Of a stretch of DNA of 64,000 bases, positions 3,584 to 53,518 are shown one piece after another. A program made the position numbers and the translations under genes. The stretch lies in NCBI RefSeq assembly GCF_037042905.1, contig NC_087245.1, forward strand, positions 35,590,001 through 35,654,000, given 5' to 3'. How positions within the stretch are numbered: position 1 is the stretch's first letter; each line of letters opens with the position of its first letter. The DNA is from Lytechinus pictus (taxonomy: Eukaryota). The notes beneath the pieces are model-generated. The model made no database searches, was not told the origin of the DNA, and was given only the letters and a program-made list of their open reading frames with translations.

Positions 3584-3814
3584 GTCACAATATTTCATAT
3601 TTTTCAAAAAGCAAAATCGTGATAAAATTGCAAAATTGTGTTAAAAAATGCAAAGAGGGCTTCCTTCGTGAAACGGCCAGCGCCGAGCAGACAGGATTGG
3701 CTCACTATTTCCGTTTCGGTCAAGAAGTTAGACATATGACGGTTTCTGAGAAACGGGCCCCAGTATTCCATAAACCTCGGTTTAATTATTATGATATCAC
3801 ATTAAACTCTTTAA

Positions 3815-4395
3815 AGGTCACGTCCATCTCAGAAAAAAACGTTAATTTGAATAAATAGAGTAATATCAAACTAGCATAACGCTGACAATTTCATCAAGTC
3901 GGATGTTAAATAAGAAAGTTGTGACAAAGTTTGGCTTATTGTTCACAAAACAGTGATATGCTCAACTCAGTGACATGCAAATGAGACAGACGATGATGTC
4001 GCTCACTCACTATTTCATTCAATTGTATTGTTTGAATTATACAATATTTCATTTTTTTGTACAGATTTGACAACTTCACTGAACCATAATTATAGTATTA
4101 AGAATGCTTATTCCATATGTTCAGGAAGGAATTAATTGTTGTTTCACTTGACAATGAGGAGAAAATTAGAATATTTAATATTTCATATTAATACAAAAGA
4201 AGAGGTGGTGGATGACGTCATCATTTTCCTAATTTGTATACCGACCACGATGTGCATATTTTGTACATGTTTTGTAAAATTAAACGAAACTTTAAAACTT
4301 TCTTATTTCCGATTTTGATGAAATTTTGTATATTATGCTTGTTGGATTTTTCTCTTTGTATTCAAATCAACTTTCTGTTGGGATGGACTTGTCAT
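3815..4395. mobile_element. Diverged copy of the TTAA-flanked AGGTCAAGTCCAC MITE family
   Basis: TTAA|AGGTCACGTCCAT...ATGGACTTGTCAT. Internal sequence is collinear with the copies at 8900 and 50629. Confidence 0.7.
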
Positions 4396-5211
4396 TTAGC
4401 AAAATACATTATCGCATATCCTGCGATTCAATGGCACATTGTTTATTCTATAAAAATATATATAACATTGTAGAACCAAAGCTTTTGAGTCTTCATACAT
4501 GGAATAATATATCTCAAGGTTTTCGATGAAACCTTTGAAAACAATATTTTTTTTTCTAATTACGTAGGAAAGGGAGAATTCCTCTATGGTATATAATAAT
4601 AGTATACGAAATACTTCGGATGACTCCTGGAGCGCTCCTCCGACAGAGAGAGAGGGGGGGAGCGAGAGAGCAAAAAAGAGAGAGGTGGAGAGAGGGGGAG
4701 GGAGGGGGAGAGTGAGGGGAGGGGGGAGGGGAAGATAAGAAGAAAGAAAGGGTGGGGTATTGACACCATTATATGCATCAACATCATTTTGTTAGGTCGA
4801 ACCCGAGATAAATCCCCATTCAATACAAATTTGTATAGTTGGTGTTGATTGAAAAGTCACGGTTATTTACTTTGCGGAATTTTTCAATTTGAAGATCTAC
4901 TTATTATTTTATGTCTCTTTAGATGAGGGTAAAATTTGTAACAGTTTTATCATTACGTTTGTTCATTTATTTCATTTCAGTTATTTCCACAATAGCAGAA
5001 AAGGAAACACATTCTGTACACCTCAACATCATCATGGAAAAGATACAATTTACATTGCACTGAAACATAATAATACATTACATTCGTGAAAGCAGATGAA
5101 TAATTGTTAATGATCATGTACCTTAAAAGCTCTCATGTGGAGGAAAACTTATGAAAGCAAGGCTTGTGAAACAGTTTCCCTTTGGCATAGATAATGGTAT
5201 CATTATCTATA

Positions 5212-7290: not shown

Positions 7291-8899
7291 TGAGGGGTTT
7301 ATATATATAATTATATTATATACATATATTTTTTTCGGGGGGGGGGATGCCCATACAAAAACGATACTAAAATGGTAATTTTTAAGTTTATGTGCATACA
7401 CTGAATCATTGACGTAGACAGGCCTCAAGTTTTTTTCTTCTTCGAAGAAGGAGTGCATTTCCATCCCTCTTTCTGCGGGTTGCACTTTGATAATCATGAT
7501 TATAAGCCTTGGTTCTTTTCATGCATCGTAAGTAGAAATTCCGATCTTTTTTCAAATCCCCTCAGGAGTTTGGAATGCAATTTCAAATATAAATGAAGTG
7601 ATCACCTTTTCACCGAGGCTTGTCCGCCCATTTCCTTTGAAGTTGATCCCTGCTTTTGTTGGCTTTCTTTACATTGTTAACGAACTAAATCAATATTATG
7701 CCCTGGAGTTGATGTGCTTGACGTTTTAGAGATTGAATGGTCTATTAGCTTACTTTAACCCGTCAACTACTGAATTTTATATACATCTCCGATACAATTT
7801 GTACAGGAGTGACCAGTCGATTCGAGTTAGCAAATGGTTAACTCGTGCTGCGATGCCTTTGGAAGGCAAACTATTGTCATTCTTGTACATGATCTTTTTG
7901 TGTGCACCCTATATACCCTAAAGTGATAGGAGGGAAAAAAGGAAAATTAGGTTAATCTCATATCGATGTGAATGGAATTTCATATTTCATGGTCATGACG
8001 GCCATAAAGCAGGTAAATGAAGGATATGATATACATGAAATAAGATGAATATATAGAAAAGAAAAAAATAATTTGTAGTGTTTATGGAGGGAGGGGGGGG
8101 GGGTAGAATGCGAGATGAGTGTGTGATACCACCCCCACTGACTTCCACATTATGCAGGCCATGAATGCACTGGCGTACAGATGGGGGGGGGGGGCAAGGA
8201 AAGGAAAGAGATAAGGGTGAAATATATGATATCATTTTCTGAATATTATGTCGAAATCTATTACAAACTTGGACTTTTGTAATGAAAATGTCGAAATTTT
8301 TGCTCGCTCGCAGCTTTAAATCAATTTTACGCGATAGGCCATAACGAGCCCCATCAATTTTTGTGGCTCATTACGCCACTGCAGAAATATATTTGAGAAA
8401 AAAGGTGAAAAATAAGGGATCCGTTGCATAAAACTTTTTGCCATGAAACACTCTGGCAAATAAAAAAACTCTGAATTTGCCAGAGCCTTTTCTATGGCAA
8501 ACGTTTTATGCAACGGGTCCAAGGTCTTCGATTTTCTTATTTCAAATCCGATTTTGATGAAATGTTCAGTGTTGCATTAATAATTGGCTTACTATCTTTT
8601 TTTATTTTATTTTATTTTTTTACATCACATCGTTGTTTGATATGGAACTCGCTTGTTATTGATGATCAGGAGCCAGCTTGTAATATCACAAAGCGCACAA
8701 AGCCTCATTATTTGCATCTAACGAGAGGGCCAATTATTTCTAGACGGCTGAGTTTTGACATTTCATTCTCGAGCTAGGTGAACGACAAAACGTCTTTCAT
8801 TCAACTGTTAATCAAAACACTGCGGATGGAGTAGTCTCTCTGTACAACCTTCGGCCGTTGAACGTTGAGCCAATAGAGAGAATTGGTCTGTTGACTTAA

Positions 8900-9504
8900 A
8901 GGTCAAGTCCACCTCAGAAAAATGTTGATTTGAATCAATAGAGAAAAATCAGACAAGCACAATGCTGAAAATTTCATCAAAATCGGATGTAAAATAAGAA
9001 AGTTAAGACATTTCAAAGTTTCGCTTATTTTTAACAAAATATTTATATGAACGAGCCAGTTACATCCAAAATGAGAGAGTCGATGATGTCACTCACTCAC
9101 TATTTCTTTTGTTTTTTATTGTTTGAATTAGAAAATATTTCAATTTTTACGAATTTGACGATTAGGACCTCCTTGCCTGAAGCACAAAATGTTAAAATAA
9201 TGGAAATCCACGTGTTCAGGGAGGAATGAAACTTCATTTCACATGACAATGACGAGAAAATAAAAATATTTCATATTTCATATAATAAAATACAAAAGAA
9301 ATAGTGAGTGAGTGATGTCATCAGTTCCTCATTTGCATACCGACCGAGATGTGCATATATAACTGTTTTGTGAAATGAAGCGAAACTTTAAAATGCCATA
9401 ACTTTCTTATTTTACATCCGATTTTGATGAAATTTTCAGTGTTATGCTTGTTGAAATTTTCTCTTTTTATTCAAATAAACTTTTTGTTGGGGTGGACTTG
9501 TCCT
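8900..9504. mobile_element. Kolobok-like MITE (TTAA TSD, AG...CT ends)
   Basis: TTAA|AGGTCAAGTCCACC...GGTGGACTTGTCCT|TTAA with long internal inverted segments. A closely related copy is at 50629-51231. Confidence 0.85.
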
Positions 9505-11232
9505 TTAATACAACAGCTTCGTATTCATATTCAAAGAAAGTTGATTGTACCCGGGATCGGGATTGAACATGCACGGTATAATGAGTGTGAAGGAAAGGGC
9601 ATTATAGTACTTTCTTTGGAGCCGTGATTGAGTGTTCGGAAGATGACAAAACGAGTTCACTAACTCAGGATTGTTCATTATACGTCAGAGAGCTAGGAGG
9701 GAAGAGAGTTGGATTATTCGGTGATGTCATCCCTGGCATCTTCCTCTGTAGATCTCCCCCAACGTCATTCGACCTCTCGTGCACATCCACATCATCATTA
9801 GATGCTCGTATTCACTCGTCTCTCAGCGAGTTGAACCACCAGCACCCAGTTGTGAGCAGATCCTAGCTGGCGAGGAAACCCGTAACCTCCCCGTAGGAAA
9901 TCAGGAGCAACCCGATCCAGGTAAGGATCCTTGGGGTGTGAGGGAGGAAACGTTGAAAATGGGGGAAAAGTTGCGGATTTTCGACATTCCTGTTGATTTG
10001 GGACAAAGATTTGTGTCTGGGATCCCTACTTAGTTGGCTACTAGAATTTTGCGAAACAGGACATCTCTTAGGTCATGTTGTATCTTTGTGACGTCATGTG
10101 ACATCATTCTATTCAAGAAGAGGCTGGAGAGCACCTCATCAAATTCTTGAAACTTTGTACGTCTTCATACAGCCGAAGTGAACCCTTCTCCATCATGTAT
10201 ATAGAGCTTGAAAGCTCAATGCATTTTTCGTTGAAACATTAAGTCAATCTTCAAAAGTTTTCTTTCATACTTTTTATATGCTCTGTTGCTTTTATATAAC
10301 TATATATTAATTGCCACTAGTGTTATTTTCCCAAAGCCGTGTTGTGTATGCTTCCGAATAAGTTCTGTCTGGGATAAGCATGGCACGGGAAACCTCCAAC
10401 GGTTTGACGTTTGCATGATCATTATTTTTCAAAAGCTAACCATTATAATTCACACCCATTTGCCTAAAAAATACTTGTGATTATACTTTAGAAAGGATGC
10501 GATAGCTGAAAAGTCACTATCTTTCTCTAACTTCTCTTTCATTTTATTTTCTTTTCATGTTTTTTTTCCAGAAATTTTATATAGGAATACATTTTCCCGC
10601 TTGACATAATAGGCTATGGGGAGCATCCAGTTTCTTTGCGCAAATTATTTCCAAGAGATTGTATGTGTATGTGCACTTTTATCTGCATTTTCAATATAGG
10701 CCTACCAAGGGCTAAAATTACAAAACAATAAACAAAGCCTTATAGTCTTACACCACAAGTGGCGTAGAATTTCATGCTTCCATTTAACGTTACCATGGCA
10801 ACATATGACATACATTCGACTGCAATATTTAATGGATTGTGTGGAAACCTGATGGAGAGCCTGTGTTTTTATTTTGCTCTGACATCAAGCGATCCCTCCT
10901 GTCTTTTATATGTATTAACATAATGGATATGGTTAAAATCGGAACGGAATTGCGTTTGCAATAATATAAAGTTCAGGTTGGGAGATCTTGTAGGATATAT
11001 AGACATAAATAACATTTGATGGTCTTATTTAGAAGAAGCATGTTTACAAAAGGGTGAGTTTGATAATTACTTGAAAAATCACTGCATCCTTCCCAGGCCC
11101 AAGTATAGCGCGGTTTATGACGAACCATATTTTGTTTGAAAAGCTGTCAACCTCGACCGCTTACCTTTTACCTACTTGGTTTCTCTTGGAATTTCAAGAA
11201 AGAGATCCGAAAGACACAGTAACCTCCGTTAA

Positions 11233-18524: not shown

Positions 18525-19013
18525 TGCTGATTAAGTGCCCCCCCCTCCCCTTCGGATGAGGAAATCAGCATCGCGATTGGATTGTGTGGCTGCATGGGGC
18601 TTCATGAATTGTATCACCTTCATATCCTGACAAAGCATTAAAATGATTGCCTGACATTTGTAAGAGAAAAGTGGAACAAAAAAATGTAGTATGGCCTCTA
18701 AATTTCATCATTAGATTACTTATGATTTGATAACTCTCATTACTTATCCCAACTTACTTCAATGCAGTACTTAATGCCCCGCCATTCTAGACTGCTAAAT
18801 GAGAAGAAATGTTCAAAATGACACAGGCCTTTGTAAACTTGTGACTGGTCATTAAAAATCCCGTGATCATGTTGTATGATAAAAGCGTCATAGTACATGA
18901 AGGTATGATATTATGCATTATTATTTGTTTCTCATTAGGTGTACATGTGTTGCATAATGCAAGCAAGCGAGGCAGCGAAGCGACAGTAGTTATGGGTGAG
19001 ACCTCATCCTAAT

Positions 19014-19320
19014 TGACCTTTGACCCGGTCATGACCTTTAACCTGGTCAGCCACGACCTTTGACCCATGACCTTTAACCTGGTCAGCCATGACCTTTAGC
19101 CCGGTCAGCCTTTGACCTTTAGCCCGGTCAGCCATGACCTTTAGTCCGGTCAGCCTTTGACCTTTAGCCTGTCAGCCTTTGACCTTTAGCCCGGTCAGCT
19201 ATGACCTTTAGCCCGGTCAGCCTTTGACCTTTAGCCCGGTCAGCCGTGACCTTTAGTCCGGTCAGCCTTTGACCTTTAGCCCGGTCATCCATGCCCTTTA
19301 CCCCGGTCAGCCTTTGACCA
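19014..19320 (+). repeat. Subterminal 22/23-bp tandem array (TGACCTTTAGCCCGGTCAGCC[A/TT]), left arm
   Basis: About 13-14 units read directly; mirrored at 25151-25457. Confidence 0.95.
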
Positions 19321-20133
19321 CACGACCCGATGGTTGACCCAGACTTCCGGTCAGCCATGTCACCATGAAATGGTATTACGACACAGTTATGCAACCACCG
19401 TGATGTCATCCCAGGGAATTACCCTTATTGCACCGTCGGTATTGCACCACCGTTGCGTCATCGCCGCGTATGGGTGACATTCGGTCGACATTATCACACG
19501 ATGCAGCGACGTTGCACGGGTATACGATACGATGCACAAAAACAAGACATCTATACAGTTTCCTATTTAAAAAGCGATCTTTCTCAAAAGCGATCTTTCT
19601 CCGCCTACCGGCGGATATGTCAACCGCCTCGCATGACGTCACCTGCTACATAAGAACCGTGATGTCATTCCAGGGAATTACCCTTTACCCGGTATTGCAC
19701 CACCGTGGCGCAATCGTCATCGCCACGTTTAGGATACGATGCACAAAACAGACGTATGATCTCTACACAGTTAAAAAGTGAAAAGTTATCTTTCTCCGCC
19801 TACCAGCAGATATGTCAAGCGCCTCGCGGTTCACGAATCGATCACCCCATGCACGGCCAACGCGCGTCATTGAACTTGGGATATCCTATAGGAAAGGTGA
19901 AAGCCGACTCTCTCTGCCTCTTATTACAACAATTATTGGTAATCCAACATGTGATTATAATCATGATAATAGTGACATCTCAGGCACTACTCATTCTAGA
20001 CTTTTCCCCATCAAAACTCTCTGACTTTTTCATACTGTTTTGTCCATACTTTTCATTTTAACTCACATGATCTGCCCGGCTCTCTGACTCGCAAAAAGTA
20101 TACAATATTGAAACCAGTAGATGACTTCTTTAA

Positions 20134-21197
20134 AGATCCAGACCGGACACGAAAATGAAATTGATAAATTATATACCAATCGAAAGCTTATAAGCTACTA
20201 AATACAGCAAGGTATGCTTTATGCATTTTCACCGCTTCCCAGCTGAGTATTTTGCTTGTGAATATTCCAATTATCGGGCTTCGAACCCCGCTTAGAATAT
20301 ACACTCTTAAAAATGTTGGGCAACATACGGTCCACACAACAATTGGTTAAAACTTTATCCAATTCTGGGTAGTTTTACACCAATACTGTGTAGTTTTCAC
20401 CCAAAGCACACATTATTGGTGTAAAACTACCCAGAATTGGATAAAGTTTTAACCAATTGTTGTGTGGACCGTATGTTGCCCAACATTTTTAAGAGTGTAG
20501 GCTTTATTGTGCTTTTCACCTGCCTCGAGACCGTGACGTCACGTTGTGTAAGAAGCATCGTGATTCCATAGGTTTGTACACAGAAAAACTGGGTGATTTT
20601 TTGCTTTCCAGATAACGCATTTCATTCTCTTCACTTCTATCACAGAGGGATATCACATATATTTTTACCCACAAGCTTGAATTTATGAAATCTACAGTTT
20701 TGAACTAGTTTTTGCCATATTTTATTTCCTGCTTATTTGGCGCAGATTTCAATTCTATCTGCATTTAGATTATGTATAACAACTTTTCCTGACATAGCAA
20801 TTTAGGCCCAATAAGAGCCAAACAAAGAAATCACAAAAAAGGTAGTGAATAGTTGTAGGTTTACAACAATTTGAACAGTGAATAATTTTGAGTGCCATTT
20901 TCATCTGAAAACGAAAAAAAAAAATGGATTCATAACATGGAAATGGAAGAAAATACCCAATGCTTTTGTACACAAACCTATGGAATCACAACCCTCCTGA
21001 CACAACGTGACGTCATCATTTCCAGGCGACGTGGGGGTGCTCAATCGAAGCGTACTTTGGAGGAGCAGTTTCTTTGATTTTTATTTAATATTTGTCAGAA
21101 ATGGAAGGAGATATATGTAATATTTTTGGTATATTTGTATTGTATGAATCATTACCTTTATTTTGATATATGACTGTTTTTACACCGGTCAGGGTCT
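20134..21197. mobile_element. Kolobok-like MITE inserted in the left arm only
   Basis: TTAA|AGATCCAGACCGG...CCGGTCAGGGTCT|TTAA, with internal inverted segments at ~20532-20593 and ~20956-21016. Absent from the right arm. Confidence 0.85.
20302..20497. mobile_element. CAC-ended (EnSpm/CACTA-like) hairpin MITE nested in the preceding element
   Basis: TA|CACTCTTAAAAATGTTGGG...CCCAACATTTTTAAGAGTG|TA, with ~80-bp perfect TIRs. Confidence 0.9.
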
Positions 21198-21590
21198 TTA
21201 AATCAACTTCATTCATACGCAGTACAGATGGTGATAACATGAAACACTATACAGTCAAGGATGATTCTTTATTATTATCATCATTTATTCTATTCCATTT
21301 CAATGTAGATAGGTTAAGATATTGTATTAACAGCAGATTTTGATACAAATGTAAATAATGTAAGTTATGTTCTCAAATTATGTTGTAATAACAAAATAAT
21401 TGTTAACTGTTCATTGTTAATATTAAAATGAAGTTCTCGTTTTTCTATTTCTTCGCTTAACTTAATGGATTGTAACACATGTATATGGATGGCATTCAGA
21501 AAATATGAACACAATGAAGTTCAAACTGTCATTTATGTTGACGGCGTTTTCTTGGATGATTATCATTTGACAAGCATGATGTTTGTGCCT

Positions 21591-22241
21591 TTAGTTGTAG
21601 ACTCCATCTTCGACCTCCGTTTCTACTCCACCATCATCATTATCGTCATCGTCACCTTGATACTGGAATAAACCATCGAATCGTGAACCATGCCTGGCTA
21701 ACACTCTCTGTACGGCTTTCCGGAATTCCATGCCATTCTCTAATCTTTCCGTGAGATCGGACACGATTTCACGATTGATGTCAGCGTCTTCGAGGTACAC
21801 GTTCTGCTGCAAGAACTGAGAGTAAAGATCGAAAAAGATACGTTTGACTGCCCAGAGTAGTTTCACGTGAGCCTTTGCTTTAGCGTCTTCTTCTTCCATT
21901 CCTTCTGAGATGTATTTCTGATATTTTTCGTCTCTCAAGTCCTCGGTGGCTGTCATGGCTTGGTCTAACCATCCTCGATAAGCGAGGTTGTCTTCAGTTT
22001 CTTCCATGTTTGCTGTCATTGACGATTCGTGTCCATCGCTTTCTGATACGCTCGTTCCGGAATCATCGTTGGATTCTTCAACTCTTTGCATTTGAGAGGA
22101 TGGGTCGGAGTCTTCATCTTCACTCGTTTCTTCTCCAGTATCATGCTCGTTTTGTTCATGCCTCTGCATATCATACTTCCTACTAAAGGTTTTATCGCAT
22201 CGTGAACAAGCGTAGCGGTTGGACATATCCAACGTATTCAT
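21591..22241 (-). CDS. Single C2H2 zinc-finger protein with acidic tracts (216 aa from first ATG), left-arm copy
   Basis: Intronless ORF with CSRC-x12-H-x4-H (YACSRCDKTFSRKYDMQRHEQNEH), a D/E/S-rich linker, a helical-looking C-terminal domain and an acidic tail. The ORF-track start at 22289 is a TTG. Confidence 0.8.
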   Translation of the reverse strand: MNTLDMSNRYACSRCDKTFSRKYDMQRHEQNEHDTGEETSEDEDSDPSSQMQRVEESNDDSGTSVSESDGHESSMTANMEETEDNLAYRGWLDQAMTATEDLRDEKYQKYISEGMEEEDAKAKAHVKLLWAVKRIFFDLYSQFLQQNVYLEDADINREIVSDLTERLENGMEFRKAVQRVLARHGSRFDGLFQYQGDDDDNDDGGVETEVEDGVYN

Positions 22242-22348
22242 GTTGACTCGATGATTATTTGTTGGGAAATGAAGAAAATTAACGTTCAACCTTGTAATAA
22301 TACGTAATCATGAAACGCGCGCGAAGGTACTTCGATTACTCACAATTC

Positions 22349-22707
22349 TTACGGATTTTTACGGATTTTTGCGGATTCTTACAGATTTTTACGGATTCTT
22401 ACGGATTTTTACGGATTCTTACGGATTCTTACGGATTCGTACGGATTCGTACAGATTTTTACGGATTCTTACGGATTATAGCCTACGGATTCTTACGGAT
22501 TTTTGCGGATTCTTACGGATTCTTACGGATTTTTACGGATTCTTACGGATTTTTTACGGATTCTTATGGATTTTTACGGATTCTTACAGATTTTTACGGA
22601 TTCGTATGGATTCTTACGGATTCGTACGGATTTTTACGGATTCTTACGGATTATAGCCTACGGATTCTTACGGATTTTTGCGGATTCGTACAGATTTTTA
22701 CGGATTC
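22349..22707 (+). repeat. 10-bp tandem array (TTACGGATTY)n, ~35 units
   Basis: Counted by eye; includes variant units and two TATAGCC-marked longer units. Confidence 0.95.
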
Positions 22708-22751
22708 ATCCACGTTGGAATGACCCCATGGGTCATTCCAACGTGGATGAA
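22705..22751. other. Perfect 22-bp stem / 3-nt loop hairpin at the centre of the palindromic element
   Basis: TTCATCCACGTTGGAATGACCC-CAT-GGGTCATTCCAACGTGGATGAA. Confidence 0.95.
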
Positions 22752-22786
22752 CATATTTTCCTTGAGATTATATGAAAGCATTAATT

Positions 22787-23203
22787 AATCCGTAGAATCT
22801 GTAAAAATCCGTAAGAATCCGTAAAAATCCGTACGAATCCGCAAAAATCCGTAAGAATCCGTAGGCTATAATCCGTAAGAATCCGCAAAAATCCGTAAGA
22901 ATCCATACGAATCCGTAAAAATCTGTAAGAATCCGTAAAAATCCGTAAGAATCCGTAAAAATCCGTAAAAATCCGTAAAAATCCGTAAGAATCCGTAAGA
23001 ATCCGCAAAAATCCGTAAGAATCCGTAGGCTATAATCCGTAAGAATCCGTAAAAATCCGTACGAATCCGTACGAATCCGTAAGAATCCGTAAGAATCCGT
23101 AAAAATCCGTAAGAATCCGTAAAAATCTGTAAGAATCCGCAAAAATCCGTAAGAATCCGTAAAAATCTGTAAGAATCCGCAAAAATCCGTAAAAATCCGT
23201 AAG
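22787..23203 (-). repeat. 10-bp tandem array in inverted orientation, ~41 units
   Basis: (RAATCCGTAA)n on the + strand; same variants as the left array but a different unit count. Confidence 0.95.
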
Positions 23204-23309
23204 AATTGTGAGTAATCGAAGTACCTTCGCGCGCGTTTCATGATTACGTATTATTACAAGGTTGAACGTTAATTTTCTTCATTTCCCAACAAATAATCAT
23301 CGAGTCAAC

Positions 23310-23960
23310 ATGAATACGTTGGATATGTCCAACCGCTACGCTTGTTCACGATGCGATAAAACCTTTAGTAGGAAGTATGATATGCAGAGGCATGAACAAA
23401 ACGAGCATGATACTGGAGAAGAAACGAGTGAAGATGAAGACTCCGACCCATCCTCTCAAATGCAAAGAGTTGAAGAATCCAACGATGATTCCGGAACGAG
23501 CGTATCAGAAAGCGATGGACACGAATCGTCAATGACAGCAAACATGGAAGAAACTGAAGACAACCTCGCTTATCGAGGATGGTTAGACCAAGCCATGACA
23601 GCCACCGAGGACTTGAGAGACGAAAAATATCAGAAATACATCTCAGAAGGAATGGAAGAAGAAGACGCTAAAGCAAAGGCTCACGTGAAACTACTCTGGG
23701 CAGTCAAACGTATCTTTTTCGATCTTTACTCTCAGTTCTTGCAGCAGAACGTGTACCTCGAAGACGCTGACATCAATCGTGAAATCGTGTCCGATCTCAC
23801 GGAAAGATTAGAGAATGGCATGGAATTCCGGAAAGCCGTACAGAGAGTGTTAGCCAGGCATGGTTCACGATTCGATGGTTTATTCAAGTATCAAGGTGAC
23901 GATGACGATAATGATGACGGTGGAGAAGAAACGGAGGTCGAAGATGGAGTCTACAACTAA
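23310..23960 (+). CDS. Single C2H2 zinc-finger protein with acidic tracts (216 aa from first ATG), right-arm copy
   Basis: Mirror copy of 21591-22241, differing by Q/K and V/E near the C-terminus. AATAAA at 24262 downstream. Confidence 0.8.
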   Translation: MNTLDMSNRYACSRCDKTFSRKYDMQRHEQNEHDTGEETSEDEDSDPSSQMQRVEESNDDSGTSVSESDGHESSMTANMEETEDNLAYRGWLDQAMTATEDLRDEKYQKYISEGMEEEDAKAKAHVKLLWAVKRIFFDLYSQFLQQNVYLEDADINREIVSDLTERLENGMEFRKAVQRVLARHGSRFDGLFKYQGDDDDNDDGGEETEVEDGVYN

Positions 23961-25150
23961 AGGCACAAACATCATGCTTGTCAAATGATAATCATCCAAG
24001 AAAACGCCGTCAACATAAATGACAGTTTGAACTTCATTGTGTTCATATTTTCTGAATGCCATCCATATACATGTGTTACAATCCATTAAGTTAAGCGAAG
24101 AAATAGAAAAACGAGAACTTCATTTTAATATTAACAATGAACAGTTAACAATTATTTTGTTATTACAACATAATTTGAGAACATAACTTACATTATTTAC
24201 ATTTGTATCAAAATCTGCTGTTAATACAATATCTTAACCTATCTACATTGAAATGGAATAGAATAAATGATGATAATAATAAAGAATCATCCTTGACTGT
24301 ATAGTGTTTCATGTTATCACCATCTGTACTGCGTATGAATGAAGTTGATTTTAATAAAGAAGTCATCTACTGGTTTCAATATTGTATACTTTTTGCGAGT
24401 CAGAGAGCCGGGCAGATCATGTGAGTTAAAATGAAAAGTATGGACAAAACAGTATGAAAAAGTCAGAGAGTTTTGATGGGGAAAAGTCTAGAATGAGTAG
24501 TGCCTGAGATGTCACTATTATCATGATTATAATCACATGTTGGATTACCAATAATTGTTGTAATAAGAGGCAGAGAGAGTCGGCTTTCACCTTTCCAATA
24601 GGATATCCCAAGTTCAATGACGCGCGTTGGCCGTGCATGGGGTGATCGATTCGTGAACCGCGAGGCGCTTGACATATCTGCTGGTAGGCGGAGAAAGATA
24701 ACTTTTCACTTTTTAACTGTGTAGAGATCATACGTCTGTTTTGTGCATCGTATCCTAAACGTGGCGATGACGATTGCGCCACGGTGGTGCAATACCGGGT
24801 AAAGGGTAATTCCCTGGAATGACATCACGGTTCTTATGTAGCAGGTGACGTCATGCGAGGCGGTTGACATATCCGCCGGTAGGCGGAGAAAGATCGCTTT
24901 TTAAATAGGAAACTGTATAGATGTCTTGTTTTTGTGCATCGTATCGTATACCCGTGCAACGTCGCTGCATCGTGTGATAAGGTCGACCGAATGTCACCCA
25001 TACGCGGCGATGACGCAACGGTGGTGCAATACCGACGGTGCAATAAGGGTAATTCCCTGGGATGACATCACGGTGGTTGCATAACTGTGTCGTAATACCA
25101 TTTCATGGTGACATGGCTGACCGGAAGTCTGGGTCAACCATCGGGTCGTG

Positions 25151-25457
25151 TGGTCAAAGGCTGACCGGGGTAAAGGGCATGGATGACCGGGCTAAAGGTC
25201 AAAGGCTGACCGGACTAAAGGTCACGGCTGACCGGGCTAAAGGTCAAAGGCTGACCGGGCTAAAGGTCATAGCTGACCGGGCTAAAGGTCAAAGGCTGAC
25301 AGGCTAAAGGTCAAAGGCTGACCGGACTAAAGGTCATGGCTGACCGGGCTAAAGGTCAAAGGCTGACCGGGCTAAAGGTCATGGCTGACCAGGTTAAAGG
25401 TCATGGGTCAAAGGTCGTGGCTGACCAGGTTAAAGGTCATGACCGGGTCAAAGGTCA
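25151..25457 (-). repeat. Subterminal 22/23-bp tandem array, right arm
   Basis: Reverse complement of 19014-19320. Confidence 0.95.
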
Positions 25458-27538
25458 ATTAGGATGAGGTCTCACCCATAACTACTAGCGACTGGGTTTT
25501 CTTTTTATGTATAAAACAAAATGTAAGGATATAAATGATAAATGATAAATGATGTAAAATTTGGATCAAATGTGGGGGGGGGGGGCTTATACACACACCC
25601 TTATGCCGTGTGGCCATGGATAAGATGAGAATGAATGATAATGATATTTTTTATGAAAGTAACATATAACTGCCTTGATGGATGACTGACGAAAAGAAGG
25701 CTCATGAATCTGTTGTTCAATGCTCTTGATGTCTACGGCAAAACAGTTTTATAGTCCATGGTCATTATTGCCATAATCATTTTTTTATTGAAAGGGGGAA
25801 AATGTAGATCGAAATATCCGTAATTTTATGGTGTAATAAAATAGCCGAACTTAATCATGCTCCCACTCTCTATTATTCTTAAAAAATTCCCTGACCATTT
25901 TAAAACTTTCTGAATGGGAAAATTTAAGAATCGTTTAGCTAAAGCGAAACGGTCAATGTTGTAAGTGATTATAGAAACTTTGATTTCCTATGGAATTTTT
26001 TCTCTAAAAAAACAACAAAAACACAACAGTTTCCACTGTTTTTTTGTTGTTGGACTTTTGGCAGAATAAAATCAAATCTGCATTTTTCTCCCTTGAGCTC
26101 TTCGGTTGATTATAATCATGTTCATCAGAAGTATGAAGATAGTGTTTTCTCCATTAATATACTGTAGCCATGATAGTTATACCTTCATGCCTGACTTTAC
26201 TCGACCGATTTTCAGATCAAGAAGAGATTAGTGAAATGATAGCGTAAAAATAATGTTGATCGGGACCATTGTCTTCAATCTGATTATCATAATCGCAATC
26301 ATGATTATATCACTTGTAGCATTATTTGCCATGAGGTTCCAAGAGAATGAATTTTTGGTTGGATAAGTCACATTCGATTGCCCACCAGTCTGTGTCTCTT
26401 CTTCGTTGCGCCTATCAGCACATCTGTCATGTTCCTTTTCGCTTGATCAATAGCGCAATACAGTCTTCCGATTCACAAGAAAAGATAGCCATCTCATAAA
26501 AAATGATTTGAATCTCATTTAAAAAAAATGATCCGCTGAATTGAATTTAGATTCCGCCAGGACGATAGTTGTATTTCGCAAAACCAGAGATAATGATGAA
26601 TATTGAAATGAACCTCTTTTTTTGCGCGCGCGCGTACAAAAGTGTTTTGTTACCCCTTTTCAGAGTTTAATTCTTCCATAATTATTGTTCATGACCAGTC
26701 GACTGAGTTGAATCAGTTGATTGACGATATTCTGATTAGATGGATTGGAGGGAGGGGAGGGGGACTAAGGAAAATGGAGCAATACGCTGTTGATTTCTGA
26801 ATATTATGTCAAAATCTATCACGAAATGAGATGTTTGTATAAAAGGTCAGAATTCGAGCCCGTGAACAGATCTCCACATGAAATAAAATGTTCTGCGATT
26901 TCACATTGCGAAGACGTGGTCAGAAGTAATTTTGCATATCCAAGTTTATCAATAATGACGAGAAATTTGATTAACGCAGCGATTCCTCGTGAATATCCTT
27001 TTTTGTATGAAGTTAGCTATAAATGATGCTTGATAATAATAAAAAATATCCAAATGTAAATTCATATTAATTATCCACATGTGATGTCACCCTAATCTAG
27101 CTTTTAACGATAAAGCAAATAAGAAGGGAAAGTATAATGGAGTAAAAAAATGATAAAGTGATAAGAAGAAATCAACATATACTGGGTTAGTAAGAACATT
27201 ATTATTCCCCTCAGATCATGGAGGTTGATAAAATGGGTTTTTTTCTTTTATCTTTACATATACTTAATTTAAACTAGAAAGTAAAAGTCTACACATGTGG
27301 ATGTGAATATGCGGTATCCTGTGTTGGAAGGCGTCGGAGGGCGAGACGGTTTGGAGAAGAATGTGTCTCTGTCCACATCATTAACAAATATCACTGGCAA
27401 TTGCATTAATGAGTGATGTATCTAATAATGATAGTTCATTTGAATCTAGTGGAGTGCATCGATGATCATGTTTGCCTTGACATTATACTGAACACGATGT
27501 CTTTAATAGGCTTAATATCACTCAAGCTTGATACTTAA

Positions 27539-49721: not shown

Positions 49722-50628
49722 GTAAGAATACTTTTCTAATTCATTAAGGGGATTACACTGTATACCATCGAGACGAGTTTACCTCCCTATATGCCTTTAC
49801 ATACCAGCTCAATGAAATAAGCTGGAATGGATCAAAGTAAGGGCTAATATCAAGAAATAGAACTCTTGATATTGAGAATTGTATTTATTAGAAATAGAAA
49901 TAGGAATGAATGTTTCATATATATAAGTTTTTATTAAAATGAATCATCATCATGCTCAAAACTCACACCGGAATAAATAGGCGCATTAGAACGATACAGA
50001 AAGATAGACATGTATAGGTCAGTATAGACAGTTCGGTCACAAAGTCCAATATAGTAGGCCTACATGTATAATAATAACTTTGATGTTTTCTTTAATACCC
50101 TAGCCCAAAAGTTTATCAAATCGATCACTTGCTTTCAACAACTTGTTATCACGAAATGTGAACGATGTTAATCCTAGTCTGCATCTGCTGTGCAATCACT
50201 TCACTCGAGTTAAGGGTCTGAAAGTGCATCCTATTAATACATAAGTGAAGACCCTCTCGCTGAATTGAAACAGCCAGTTTTGTATGTACTATAGTCTTCG
50301 CGTGGAGACCCACTTGTTGATCAAAAGTTTCAATCAGGGTCTGCGCGCCTGCAGACTATGTAAGCCCGATGACCCGTATTTTGAACTCCTGTTTAATTTC
50401 AACCATGGTATAAGCCAAAAGTGTCCCGAATCTGTTTACACTGCCATGCTTCTTGTCATTGCTGGGTTATTTCCCATGTTTATAAACCATGGGGGGGGGG
50501 GGGCACATCCAGCCGGTGCCCCCCCCCTGGATCCGCCACCAACCAGTGCGTATACTAATTTGTAGCATATTCACACAGGACGAAAAAGACAGAGATATCA
50601 AGAAGAAGCAGTGGTTTCGAAGTATTAA

Positions 50629-51231
50629 AGGTCAAGTCCACCCCAGAAAAATGTTGATTTGAATAAATAGAGAAAAGTCAAGATAGCACAATGCTGAAAA
50701 TTTCATCAAAATCGGATGTAAAATAAGAAAGTTATGGCATTTTAAAGTTTAGCTTATTTTTTCACAAAACAGTGATATGCACAACTCAGTGACATACAAA
50801 TGAGTGAGTCGATGATGTCACTCACTCACTATTTCTTTTGTTTTTTATTGTTTGAATTATACAATATTAATTTTTTTACAGATTTGACAATAAGGACCAA
50901 CTTGACTGAACCATATAGTATTAAACAATGTTAATTCCACATGTTCAGGAGGAATTAATTTTTTTTTCACTTGACGATGAGGAGAAAAATAGAATATTCC
51001 TTATTTCTTATAATAAAATACAAAATAAATAGTGAGTGGATGACGTCATCAGTCTCCTCATTTGCATACTGACCAGGATGTGCATATAACTATTATGTGA
51101 AATTAAGCGAAATTTCAAAATGTCATAACTTTCTTATTTTCCATCCGATTTTGATGAAATTTTCAGTGTTATGCTCGTTGGATTTTTATCTTTTTATTCA
51201 AATCAACTTTTTGTTTGGGTGGACTTGTCCT
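50629..51231. mobile_element. Kolobok-like MITE (same family as 8900-9504)
   Basis: TTAA|AGGTCAAGTCCACCC...GGGTGGACTTGTCCT|TTAA. Confidence 0.88.
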
Positions 51232-51710
51232 TTAAAGTAGAAGTATCAAAGAAGAACAAATTCTCTCAATAACAACAGCAACAACAACAACAGTAATGAT
51301 TATATTAATAATAATGATAATAATGATAATAATGATAATAATAATAAATAAATGATAACGATAATGATAATAACGATGGTGTTAATAATAATAATGATAA
51401 TGATAATAATACTAGTAATAATACAATATCAATGATAATAGCAATAACAATAAATATATATAAACATTTATAAAGCGCCAGTCTCGTAAAATTTTCGGAA
51501 ATTCTGAGATGCATTAAACAAATTTATAAAATGAGTTGATGGATATTAAATAAATTTCGGAACGGAGTAAACAAAAACCAAAAAAAAAAGAAAAATGCAC
51601 CCAATTACTTTTACGATAATACTTACGATTTTTGCCTGGAAATCTTATATTATTACTAATATTCTTATTAATATTACCATTGTATTGTTGTTTTTGTTTA
51701 TTGTACATAG

Positions 51711-52175: not shown

Positions 52176-52619
52176 TGCATGGTAACTCCTGTTAGGAAGT
52201 CGATGCAATATGAAGACGAGTCATAATCTATTGAATCCTGTCATTCTGCAATTCTGCTGATTTAATTGCATTCCTTTAATTTATCGTTCTGTTTATTGAA
52301 CAATACACTAAATCTTTGTTGACATATATTTTCATTGCTAATATATTATTACGATTATGGTAGTATAGTATTGATTTGTTATATATTGTCTTTGAATAAG
52401 TTATGTCGTGTAATAATTTCTGATGTTAATGCAGAAATCAAATCAATCGCAAACTCTACCACATATAATTGAATAATGTCTTACTATAATGTCTTGCTAT
52501 ACTTCACGAATCATGTCCAAGTGCAATTCAACAAAACTATTTCAATTTATTTGTTCAGAATAATACGACATGTTTTTTTAATAAATAGAATACTAAGTGA
52601 AACTTATCGTTTTGTTAAG

Positions 52620-52856
52620 GATATTGGTGAGTTCGACTGGGACAGCGAAACACAAGAGTTCATCCTGGCCGGATTCTTCTATGGCTATATATTCACTCAG
52701 CTGCCTGGCGGATGGCTCGCAGACAAATTTGGCGGGAAATTTATTTTCGCACTGGGCGTGCTGTGTACGAGTCTCTGTTCTCTGGTCTTCCCCGTCGCTT
52801 CCTACGCAGGACCCGGCGTCGTGTTTACGACGAGAGTAATTTCGGGTCTGGGAGAG
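52620..52856 (+). CDS. SLC17 transporter, exon 3
   Basis: FDWDSETQEFILAGFFYGYIFTQLPGGWLADKFGGK...RVISGLGE. Confidence 0.95.
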
Positions 52857-53518
52857 GTGAGACTATTTTTGACTATTTTTTTCAGATGCCAGAACGAAAG
52901 CGAAACAATATCTACCACATTCCATAACTTTTTCAGATTTGGTTTATAATTATGTAGTCCCTATTTTTTTACGATGTTAGATATTGAAGCTTTAATATGT
53001 TTTTTATTAATCAAGTACCAAATATTTGGAATGAAAGAAAGAAATATCTTATTGTTAATTTTTTGAATTTCTTTTCAATTATCTGTGAGAACAAGTGAAT
53101 CTTTTGTTGGATTCTTTATCATATTTCAGGAAAGTTGCATAGGAATGATTGATCCTATAATGCCACACTCACTAGGCCTATTTCTTTTGTATAATTTTAA
53201 TATACGTAATGTGAAATATAATACAGCCTTTATATATATATAAAAAAATACATTTATGTTGATTAAGACGAATTAAAAAAATGGATGATATCATATTTCA
53301 TTTAAGGAAATACAAAATATATAGTGAGTGACCGACGTCATCGCTTCCCCTATATTATACTGAACACGATGCGTATGAGTGAATATAAGTGAAACTTTTC
53401 AAAGCTATTTTTGTTTCTATTCAATTTTGATGAAATTTGATTTTTATGCGTGTTTTGTTTTTCTATCTTTGTTTAAATGAATAAAAACGATGTGCTATTA
53501 CATTTACAATCACAACAG

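Follow-up and report, generated by a model that had tools for sequence, protein, structure and literature searches.

Palindromic elements with Polinton ends in the genome of Lytechinus pictus: gene-carrying satellites with a probable fold-back intermediate in their copying

How is an element that reads as one long palindrome, bears Polinton-like ends and encodes no recognizable enzyme copied and spread in an animal genome? This question is raised by a 6.5-kb element in Lytechinus pictus, located in a stretch of 64,000 nucleotides (nt) of contig NC_087245.1 (positions 35,590,001 to 35,654,000 of the forward strand, assembly GCF_037042905.1), which is here called the window. An earlier interpretation made from the letters of this stretch (the sequence-only reading) had proposed an integrated snap-back genome, in which one end of a parent Polinton was copied back on itself. 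In the follow-up, in which the 812-Mb genome was searched, the element was found to belong to a family of palindromes that are very likely satellites of Polintons. These satellites spread as a unit, use Polinton ends, capture DNA of a helper element symmetrically, reset their two arms to each other and keep a selected gene. The fold-back copying step, deduced from integrated copies, is probable, and to the model as a whole, in which non-autonomous Polinton satellites that are palindromic end to end are copied through a fold-back intermediate, a probability of roughly 0.6 is assigned.

The termini AGTAGT...ACTACT and the perfect 6-bp target-site duplication AGCGAC, both described in the sequence-only reading, were recovered by self-comparison (Table 1). 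The two arms are about 99.5% alike, with 12 mismatches in 2,652 paired positions (0.45%); positions 18985-20132 pair with 24355-25486 at 98.4% (one 16-nt tandem duplication and 2 mismatches) and positions 21197-22707 pair with 22787-24354. The palindrome is real, but its left arm is broken by a TTAA-flanked insertion of 1,064 bp that had gone unmentioned, and because of this insertion the element measures 6.5 kb instead of about 5.4 kb. From the end inward, each arm consists of a terminal segment, 18-23-bp repeats, approximately 1.8 kb of non-coding DNA together with the tail of an open reading frame (ORF), the ORF itself and a 10-bp array of 35-41 units. The centre, previously given as about 80 bp, is indeed 82 nt long (22705-22786), but it is not unique filler, since it consists of a 22-bp hairpin and a 35-nt spacer; its folding z score is -16 against 200 shuffles. 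The 10-bp arrays diverge more between the arms (5 mismatches and 3 indels in about 350 nt) than the remainder does (6 mismatches in about 2,300 nt). In the survey of ORFs in 18985-25486, no frame for pPolB, integrase, ATPase, protease or capsid was present, in agreement with the earlier interpretation. The largest ORF has at most 238 codons and the zinc-finger ORF, one per arm, is the only credible one; frames of 137-157 amino acids (aa) across the 10-bp array were discarded, since they reflect reading through the repeats.

Table 1. Features of the palindromic element and its immediate flanks, in window coordinates.
Feature	Position	Strand	Remark
Whole palindromic element	18985..25486	.	(AGT)2...(ACT)2 ends; self-comparison
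Left target-site duplication	18979..18984	+	AGCGAC, 6 bp
Right target-site duplication	25487..25492	+	AGCGAC, 6 bp
Terminal segment common to the 16.9-kb pPolB element C6:1299810-1316732	18985..19079	+	79%, 97 columns
Left subterminal array	19014..19319	+	18-23-bp repeats rich in TGACCT/TGACCC
Right subterminal repeat array	25152..25457	-	
Secondary 1,064-bp insertion	20134..21197	.	left arm only; TTAA duplication 20130-20133/21198-21201
Small palindromic element nested in the 1,064-bp insertion	20302..20497	.	TA duplication
Left zinc-finger/acidic/helical ORF	21591..22289	-	outward-pointing; 232 aa from TTG, 216 aa from ATG 22241
Right copy of the ORF	23262..23960	+	outward-pointing; ATG 23310
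Left 10-bp tandem array	22345..22707	+	about 35 units
Right 10-bp tandem array	22787..23206	-	about 41 units, inverted
Central perfect hairpin	22705..22751	.	22-bp stem and 3-nt loop
One-sided spacer	22752..22786	.	35 nt; sole unpaired original sequence
Four extra bases at a TTAA site	24350..24357	.	mirror site of the left-arm insertion; probable footprint of an excision

The element is one of many. A degenerate 20-nt pattern of the terminus was found at 131 genomic sites versus 1 for the control, and among the 100 terminus matches listed there are 36 inward-facing pairs 2.5-7.4 kb apart (median 5.1 kb) and 3 such pairs spanning 26-49 kb. The codon pattern of the arm gene has 191 sites versus none for the control; among the 100 sites listed, 68 form 34 divergent pairs less than 4 kb apart, with one convergent and no same-strand pair. 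In addition, 20 further loci (L031-L050), chosen by their likeness to the window copy, were retrieved. A perfect 6-bp duplication flanks 11 of the 13 two-ended copies (the window copy included) and is different in each, a count that leaves out L035 and L040, in which one end is damaged, and the six loci in which a single end is visible. In nine of these 13 copies, 0.88-0.98 of the bases can pair with the same copy, compared with 0.69-0.82 in four that have inserts or deletions, and the arms in the family are 1.9-3.2 kb long. Other palindromic copies with different 6-bp duplications and the same centre thus exist, which supports the earlier proposals that the palindrome was integrated as a unit and that it represents a family of gene-carrying satellites. 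Chimeric long reads can produce palindromes, and an assembly artefact from fold-back reads might be considered; it is extremely improbable, as an insert and 12 substitutions distinguish the arms, the flanks are unique and carry the duplication, ten more copies have duplications of their own, and arm sequence is present in contigs of the independent runs X1 and X9.

Nine of the other loci contain the same centre, intact or eroded; in L031, one base separates its 26-bp arms. In every copy in which both sides are readable, the spacer is one-sided, and the copies have therefore inherited a single founder junction. Three codon variants of the arm gene each occur as divergent pairs, and a second gene subfamily has 68-73% protein identity to the main one; the palindromic plan is therefore old. 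Repeated snap-back accidents do not describe this family, as the inherited centre traces the copies to an old founder that was already palindromic. Further variation of the centre has been observed. In L039 (3606-3762) the centre is duplicated, and the hairpin tips (A and T) are opposite relative to the spacer in a flip-flop-like manner, which was seen in this single copy. The spacer octamer TACATGTA is present in the centres of L032, L037, L048 and L049, and elsewhere a TA-containing sequence without the octamer is found. Two clusters, C17:8134560-8181441 (47 kb) and C6:21765963-21792011 (26 kb), contain many near-identical units in alternating orientation, which could be concatemers from hairpin-type replication or products of unequal crossing-over.

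A candidate helper is present in the same genome. A pPolB frame (1,249 codons) is located about 4 kb from the terminus site at C6:1316732 and is followed by an A32-like ATPase. With the 3-kb end of this element (L051) as the query, its other end was placed at C6:1299810, resulting in a 16.9-kb element with a terminal repeat of about 537 bp at 97%; two more copies were found on C17 and C21 among the best 40 of 170 candidates scored. In its ends, its size and the length of the duplication, the C6 element agrees with the definition of Mavericks in the passages of PMC8097293. The Polinton derivation of the ends, claimed earlier, thus stands. The segment in common at the end of the window copy is presumed to hold the integrase and replication-origin signals. 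TGACCT/TGACCC hexamers have a density of 15 per 400 nt at 18985-19384 and 9 per 400 nt at the end of the C6 element, versus a background of 0.17, and at both ends they are arranged as direct repeats, which we take to resemble nuclear-receptor sites.

The extent of the likeness varies among the satellites. Four of the 15 copies tested (L038, L039, L040 and L050) match the first 355-468 nt of the C6 end at 82-99%, and the other 11, the window copy among them, match only its first 91-152 nt at 72-86%. Five palindromes hold DNA of the C6 element past its 537-bp repeat, to nt 819, 858, 901, 986 and 1524, in both arms. This is direct evidence that one helper end has been copied onto both arms, either on several occasions or as a longer capture that was trimmed symmetrically. 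The palindrome at C6:11935588-11938261 (2.7 kb), both arms of which contain helper DNA to nt 986, has no gene match among those listed and is possibly a gene-less derivative. Foldback transposons, such as Drosophila FB, Galileo and sea-urchin TU, also have long modular inverted arms with tandem repeats, and they are known for duplications of 7-9 bp and ends of the P/MuDR type. Given this resemblance, the palindromes could be classical foldback elements of the FB, TU or Galileo type that are moved by a cut-and-paste transposase and have Polinton-like ends by coincidence. This explanation is very improbable and has largely been refuted already by the match to a pPolB element over hundreds of bases (82-99%); the 6-bp duplication and the ATPase-fused homologues of the gene also speak against it.

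The C6 element does not contain the whole satellite. The arm gene, the 10-bp array and the centre are not present in its 3-kb end, and the gene motif is absent from the whole element. The sequence-only reading had suggested a search for full-length Polintons with both the end and the zinc-finger gene; the one found has the end and not the gene motif. That the satellite is simply one parent end copied back is therefore not supported; the window copy, moreover, has only about 91 terminal bases in common with this Polinton. In the genome, which has approximately 18 pPolB loci overall, none of the 11 pPolB loci that fall in the listed range has an arm-gene motif less than 200 kb away; the searches for the arm gene inside Polintons, all of them negative, scored part of the candidates or required an exact motif. 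The palindromes could also be internal deletions of an unsampled Polinton whose ordinary terminal repeats of about 2.5 kb held the gene, since the repeats of Polintons are homogenised and variable in length (46-1,447 bp in vertebrates, according to passages of PMC8097293), the helper comparison covered one 3-kb end, and the searches scored a subset of candidates. This origin is improbable. The repeat of the C6 element is only about 537 bp, unlike the repeats of about 2.7 kb with the gene that the sequence-only reading had named as grounds for a simple deletion; no gene motif was found near the pPolB loci listed; the perfect central hairpin, with its one-base tip in L031, indicates a fold-back junction and not the remnant of a deletion; and three gene variants, down to about 70% protein identity, all occur in divergent pairs. 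Another Polinton family, which has frames for pPolB, ATPase and protease, was observed at C17:1560992-1568342 and C3:55088700-55096088.

The arms of a copy resemble each other more than they resemble those of other copies. Over the ORF and its 3' flank, the distance between the arms within a copy is 0-2.1% (12 copies), compared with a median of 3.7% between copies (484 pairs, range 0.35-6.7), leaving out six matches shorter than 600 nt. Twenty-one of the 24 arms are nearest to their own partner, the exceptions being both arms of L031 and one arm of L049. Relative to the right arm of the window copy, 29 indels are present in both arms and 4 in one arm (11 copies). The outer arms are 0.94-1.00 alike inside nine of 11 copies versus 0.55-0.90 between those copies; the window copy and L050 carry one-arm inserts. 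Changes in the ORF that occur in several copies have a ratio of amino-acid-changing to silent changes (pN/pS) of 0.27 (16 silent, 18 not; p = 0.0002), and those in both arms of one copy have a ratio of 0.34 (14 silent, 20 not; p = 0.003). For changes in one arm only, the ratio is 0.62 (5 silent, 13 not; p = 0.26, not significant), and in arms without a visible partner it is 1.23. By these ratios, the changes common to both arms show purifying selection. Because two-arm changes look selected and one-arm changes do not, this pattern suggests that the arms were matched while the lineage was still selected, i.e. before or at insertion, and that drift followed.

Several observations weigh against the fold-back model. 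Two of the 13 two-ended copies have no target-site duplication, some pairs of the 72% subfamily are convergent (e.g. C17:9749460-9752539 and C20:8818143-8820946), and the window copy matches the C6 end over just about 91 nt at 79%. The selection test comprises few changes (34) in 20 loci that were picked for their likeness to the window copy. One arm of L031 is nearer to the window arms (0.4%) than to its own partner (2.1%). A stop codon is present in both arms of two copies, which requires either that dead copies were mobilised or that conversion took place in situ. The insertion in one arm of the window copy and the footprint in the other imply that a host transposon was copied between arms. 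Regarding the helper, the search for integrase (rve) placed none at C6:1.30-1.32 Mb among the best 150 of 932 candidates, which were seemingly all from retrotransposons, and the capsid model PF21738 gave no match anywhere in the genome, nor in the controls. The protease model PF00770 matched two other Polintons and not the C6 element.

The double stops, the L031 mosaic and the insert/footprint pair also fit an explanation with the same family and helper, in which the elements move by plain excision and integration and the arms are later kept alike by chromosomal gene conversion, as happens in the large palindromes of animals. Palindromes are known to form cruciforms and to undergo conversion readily. 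Chromosomal conversion is nevertheless rather unlikely. The two-arm changes look selected (pN/pS 0.34) and one-arm changes do not, the capture of helper DNA in both arms alike, with five breakpoints, is easier in helper-driven replication, and the ends together with the pPolB helper indicate a replicative element.

Under the fold-back model, a co-resident Polinton would supply the integrase and the protein-primed polymerase in trans, as the ends and the missing enzymes suggest. A replicating strand that has passed the centre would pair with its own first arm and copy that arm; alternatively, the displaced strand may snap back and be repaired arm against arm. The product would be a hairpin of about 2.5 kb with a complete origin at its open end, and a second round would result in the duplex palindrome, which would be integrated with a 6-bp duplication. 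In this way, one arm would be copied onto the other, captured helper DNA included, and the asymmetric centre would be left intact. A turn-back exactly at the central tip in every round appears unlikely, because it would erase the one-sided spacer. The 10-bp arrays may be the switch site, because they differ between the arms more than the remainder does.

The protein encoded in the arms has one C2H2 finger, an acidic stretch and a helical domain. The AlphaFold model (predicted local distance difference test, pLDDT, of 78) contains the zinc finger and a confidently modelled helical domain; its fold had no match in BFVD at E<=0.001 or in the PDB at Z>=8, and a search of the ESM Atlas with the protein returned generic zinc-finger clusters only. 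Among the named homologues of the ORF, the nearest carry the label Lytechinus pictus. The helical domain is found in 130 clusters (50% identity) among 1.84 billion representatives, and the finger pattern is also present in 38 of the 139 proteins inspected. A phmmer search from the helical domain retrieved the ATPase-fused proteins P0068 (E 5.5e-11), P0120 (7e-5) and P0141 (9e-4), and P0120 and P0141 are above the cut-off of Pox_A32. The family profile matches the tail of P0141 with 99.6% probability; this profile contains two distant rows and the phmmer result is cleaner. When P0120 was compared with the genome, its ATPase part led to ATPases beside pPolB genes and its tail led to satellites, not Polintons (98 of 247 candidates scored), and P0098 gave the same outcome (135 of 241 candidates scored). 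Judging from these protein comparisons, the arm gene branched off from a module that is fused to the packaging ATPase in other Polinton-like elements. It would be of Polinton stock and, according to searches that scored part of the candidates, only the satellites now carry it in this genome. No relatives were confirmed in viral and metagenome contigs in a scan with alignment A1. The putative role of the gene is most likely in the satellite's own replication or packaging, for example by binding the DNA of the 10-bp array or by recruiting the helper ATPase.

In approximately 6% of each of the raw RNA runs X23 and X24, 64 and 12 matching reads were found, respectively. These reads are mostly 90-95% alike to the window copy, as expected of other copies, they are in both directions, and 42% continue into other sequence. 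First mates are mainly on the plus strand, which would be antisense to the ORF in most stranded libraries; as the library type is unspecified, no conclusion is based on this. The public gene models P0013 and P0015 join the N-terminal part of the ORF to a sialyltransferase and a hydroxylysine kinase, which suggests that the element is spliced to host genes or that the annotation is in error.

The 1,064-bp insertion in the left arm has short imperfect inverted ends beginning with AG, is absent from the loci compared (L031-L050) and is presumably Kolobok-like. Together with the four extra bases in the right arm, it looks as if the insertion was once in both arms and was then lost from the right one; the extra bases are absent from both arms of L031 and from the contigs of runs X1 and X9. 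Elsewhere in the window, a palindromic miniature inverted-repeat transposable element of about 600 bp has three copies that are 77-86% alike (3811-4398, 8896-9508 and 50625-51235), and an exon-like frame at 52473-52946 presumably resembles a major-facilitator anion transporter.

Multiple known systems resemble these satellites in part. Non-autonomous Polintons in Repbase are helper-dependent deletion derivatives with Polinton ends and a 6-bp duplication; the satellites differ from these in being palindromic end to end, in having a selected gene that is not found in the helper, and in the homogenisation of their arms. Snap-back or palindromic derivatives of protein-primed replicons include those of adenovirus panhandle repair, the hairpin derivatives of yeast pGKL and the palindromes of Streptomyces pSLA2. 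In these, likewise, the origin-bearing end is doubled around a hairpin, and the single strand folds to a duplex with a complete origin. They are laboratory or transient products, whereas the satellites are integrated in the germ line and amplified, with a gene under purifying selection; the satellite is also not a pure example, as the 3-kb helper end lacks most of the satellite's interior. Mavericks have the end motifs (AGT)2//(ACT)2 or (AG)3//(CT)3, measure 12.7-24.6 kb and have repeats of 46-1,447 bp around a gene-rich core with eight core genes (passages of Barreat and Katzourakis 2021, PMC8097293). Compared with this description, the satellites have the same end motifs and 6-bp duplication (11 of 13 two-ended copies), but they have none of the eight core genes, span 2.5-7.4 kb, and consist of arms of 2-3 kb that meet at a centre of about 80-150 nt instead of short repeats around such a core. 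The window element is therefore not an autonomous Polinton and, as far as can be tested, it is a non-autonomous derivative.

No account of whole-length palindromic Polinton derivatives was found in the literature searched, with supplements, Repbase and Dfam outside the search and a catalogued entry therefore possible, and the word stem 'palindrom' is absent from the passages of PMC11414722, PMC11296320 and PMC8097293. The present analysis adds an end-sharing helper, the link of the gene to Polinton ATPases and the signature of homogenisation. A wider reading, in which one-origin hairpin replicons form a distinct class of animal Polinton satellites across phyla, integrating as palindromic dimers, swapping ends with helpers and using a protein derived from the ATPase module to redirect helper replication or packaging, is tentative and rather doubtful; under it, the satellite protein would redirect the helper as phage-inducible islands redirect phages.

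To our knowledge, the replication of Polintons has been deduced from their gene content and has never been watched in an animal. The resetting of arms and the symmetric capture of helper DNA would be the fossil trace of a fold-back step in replication, and such small, abundant molecules make the panhandle model testable. The family points to satellites of animal Polintons with a selected gene of their own, and it links an unannotated protein family of 130 clusters to Polinton ATPases. For the animal itself, dozens of 5-kb palindromes in the genome are a source of genome instability and double-stranded RNA.

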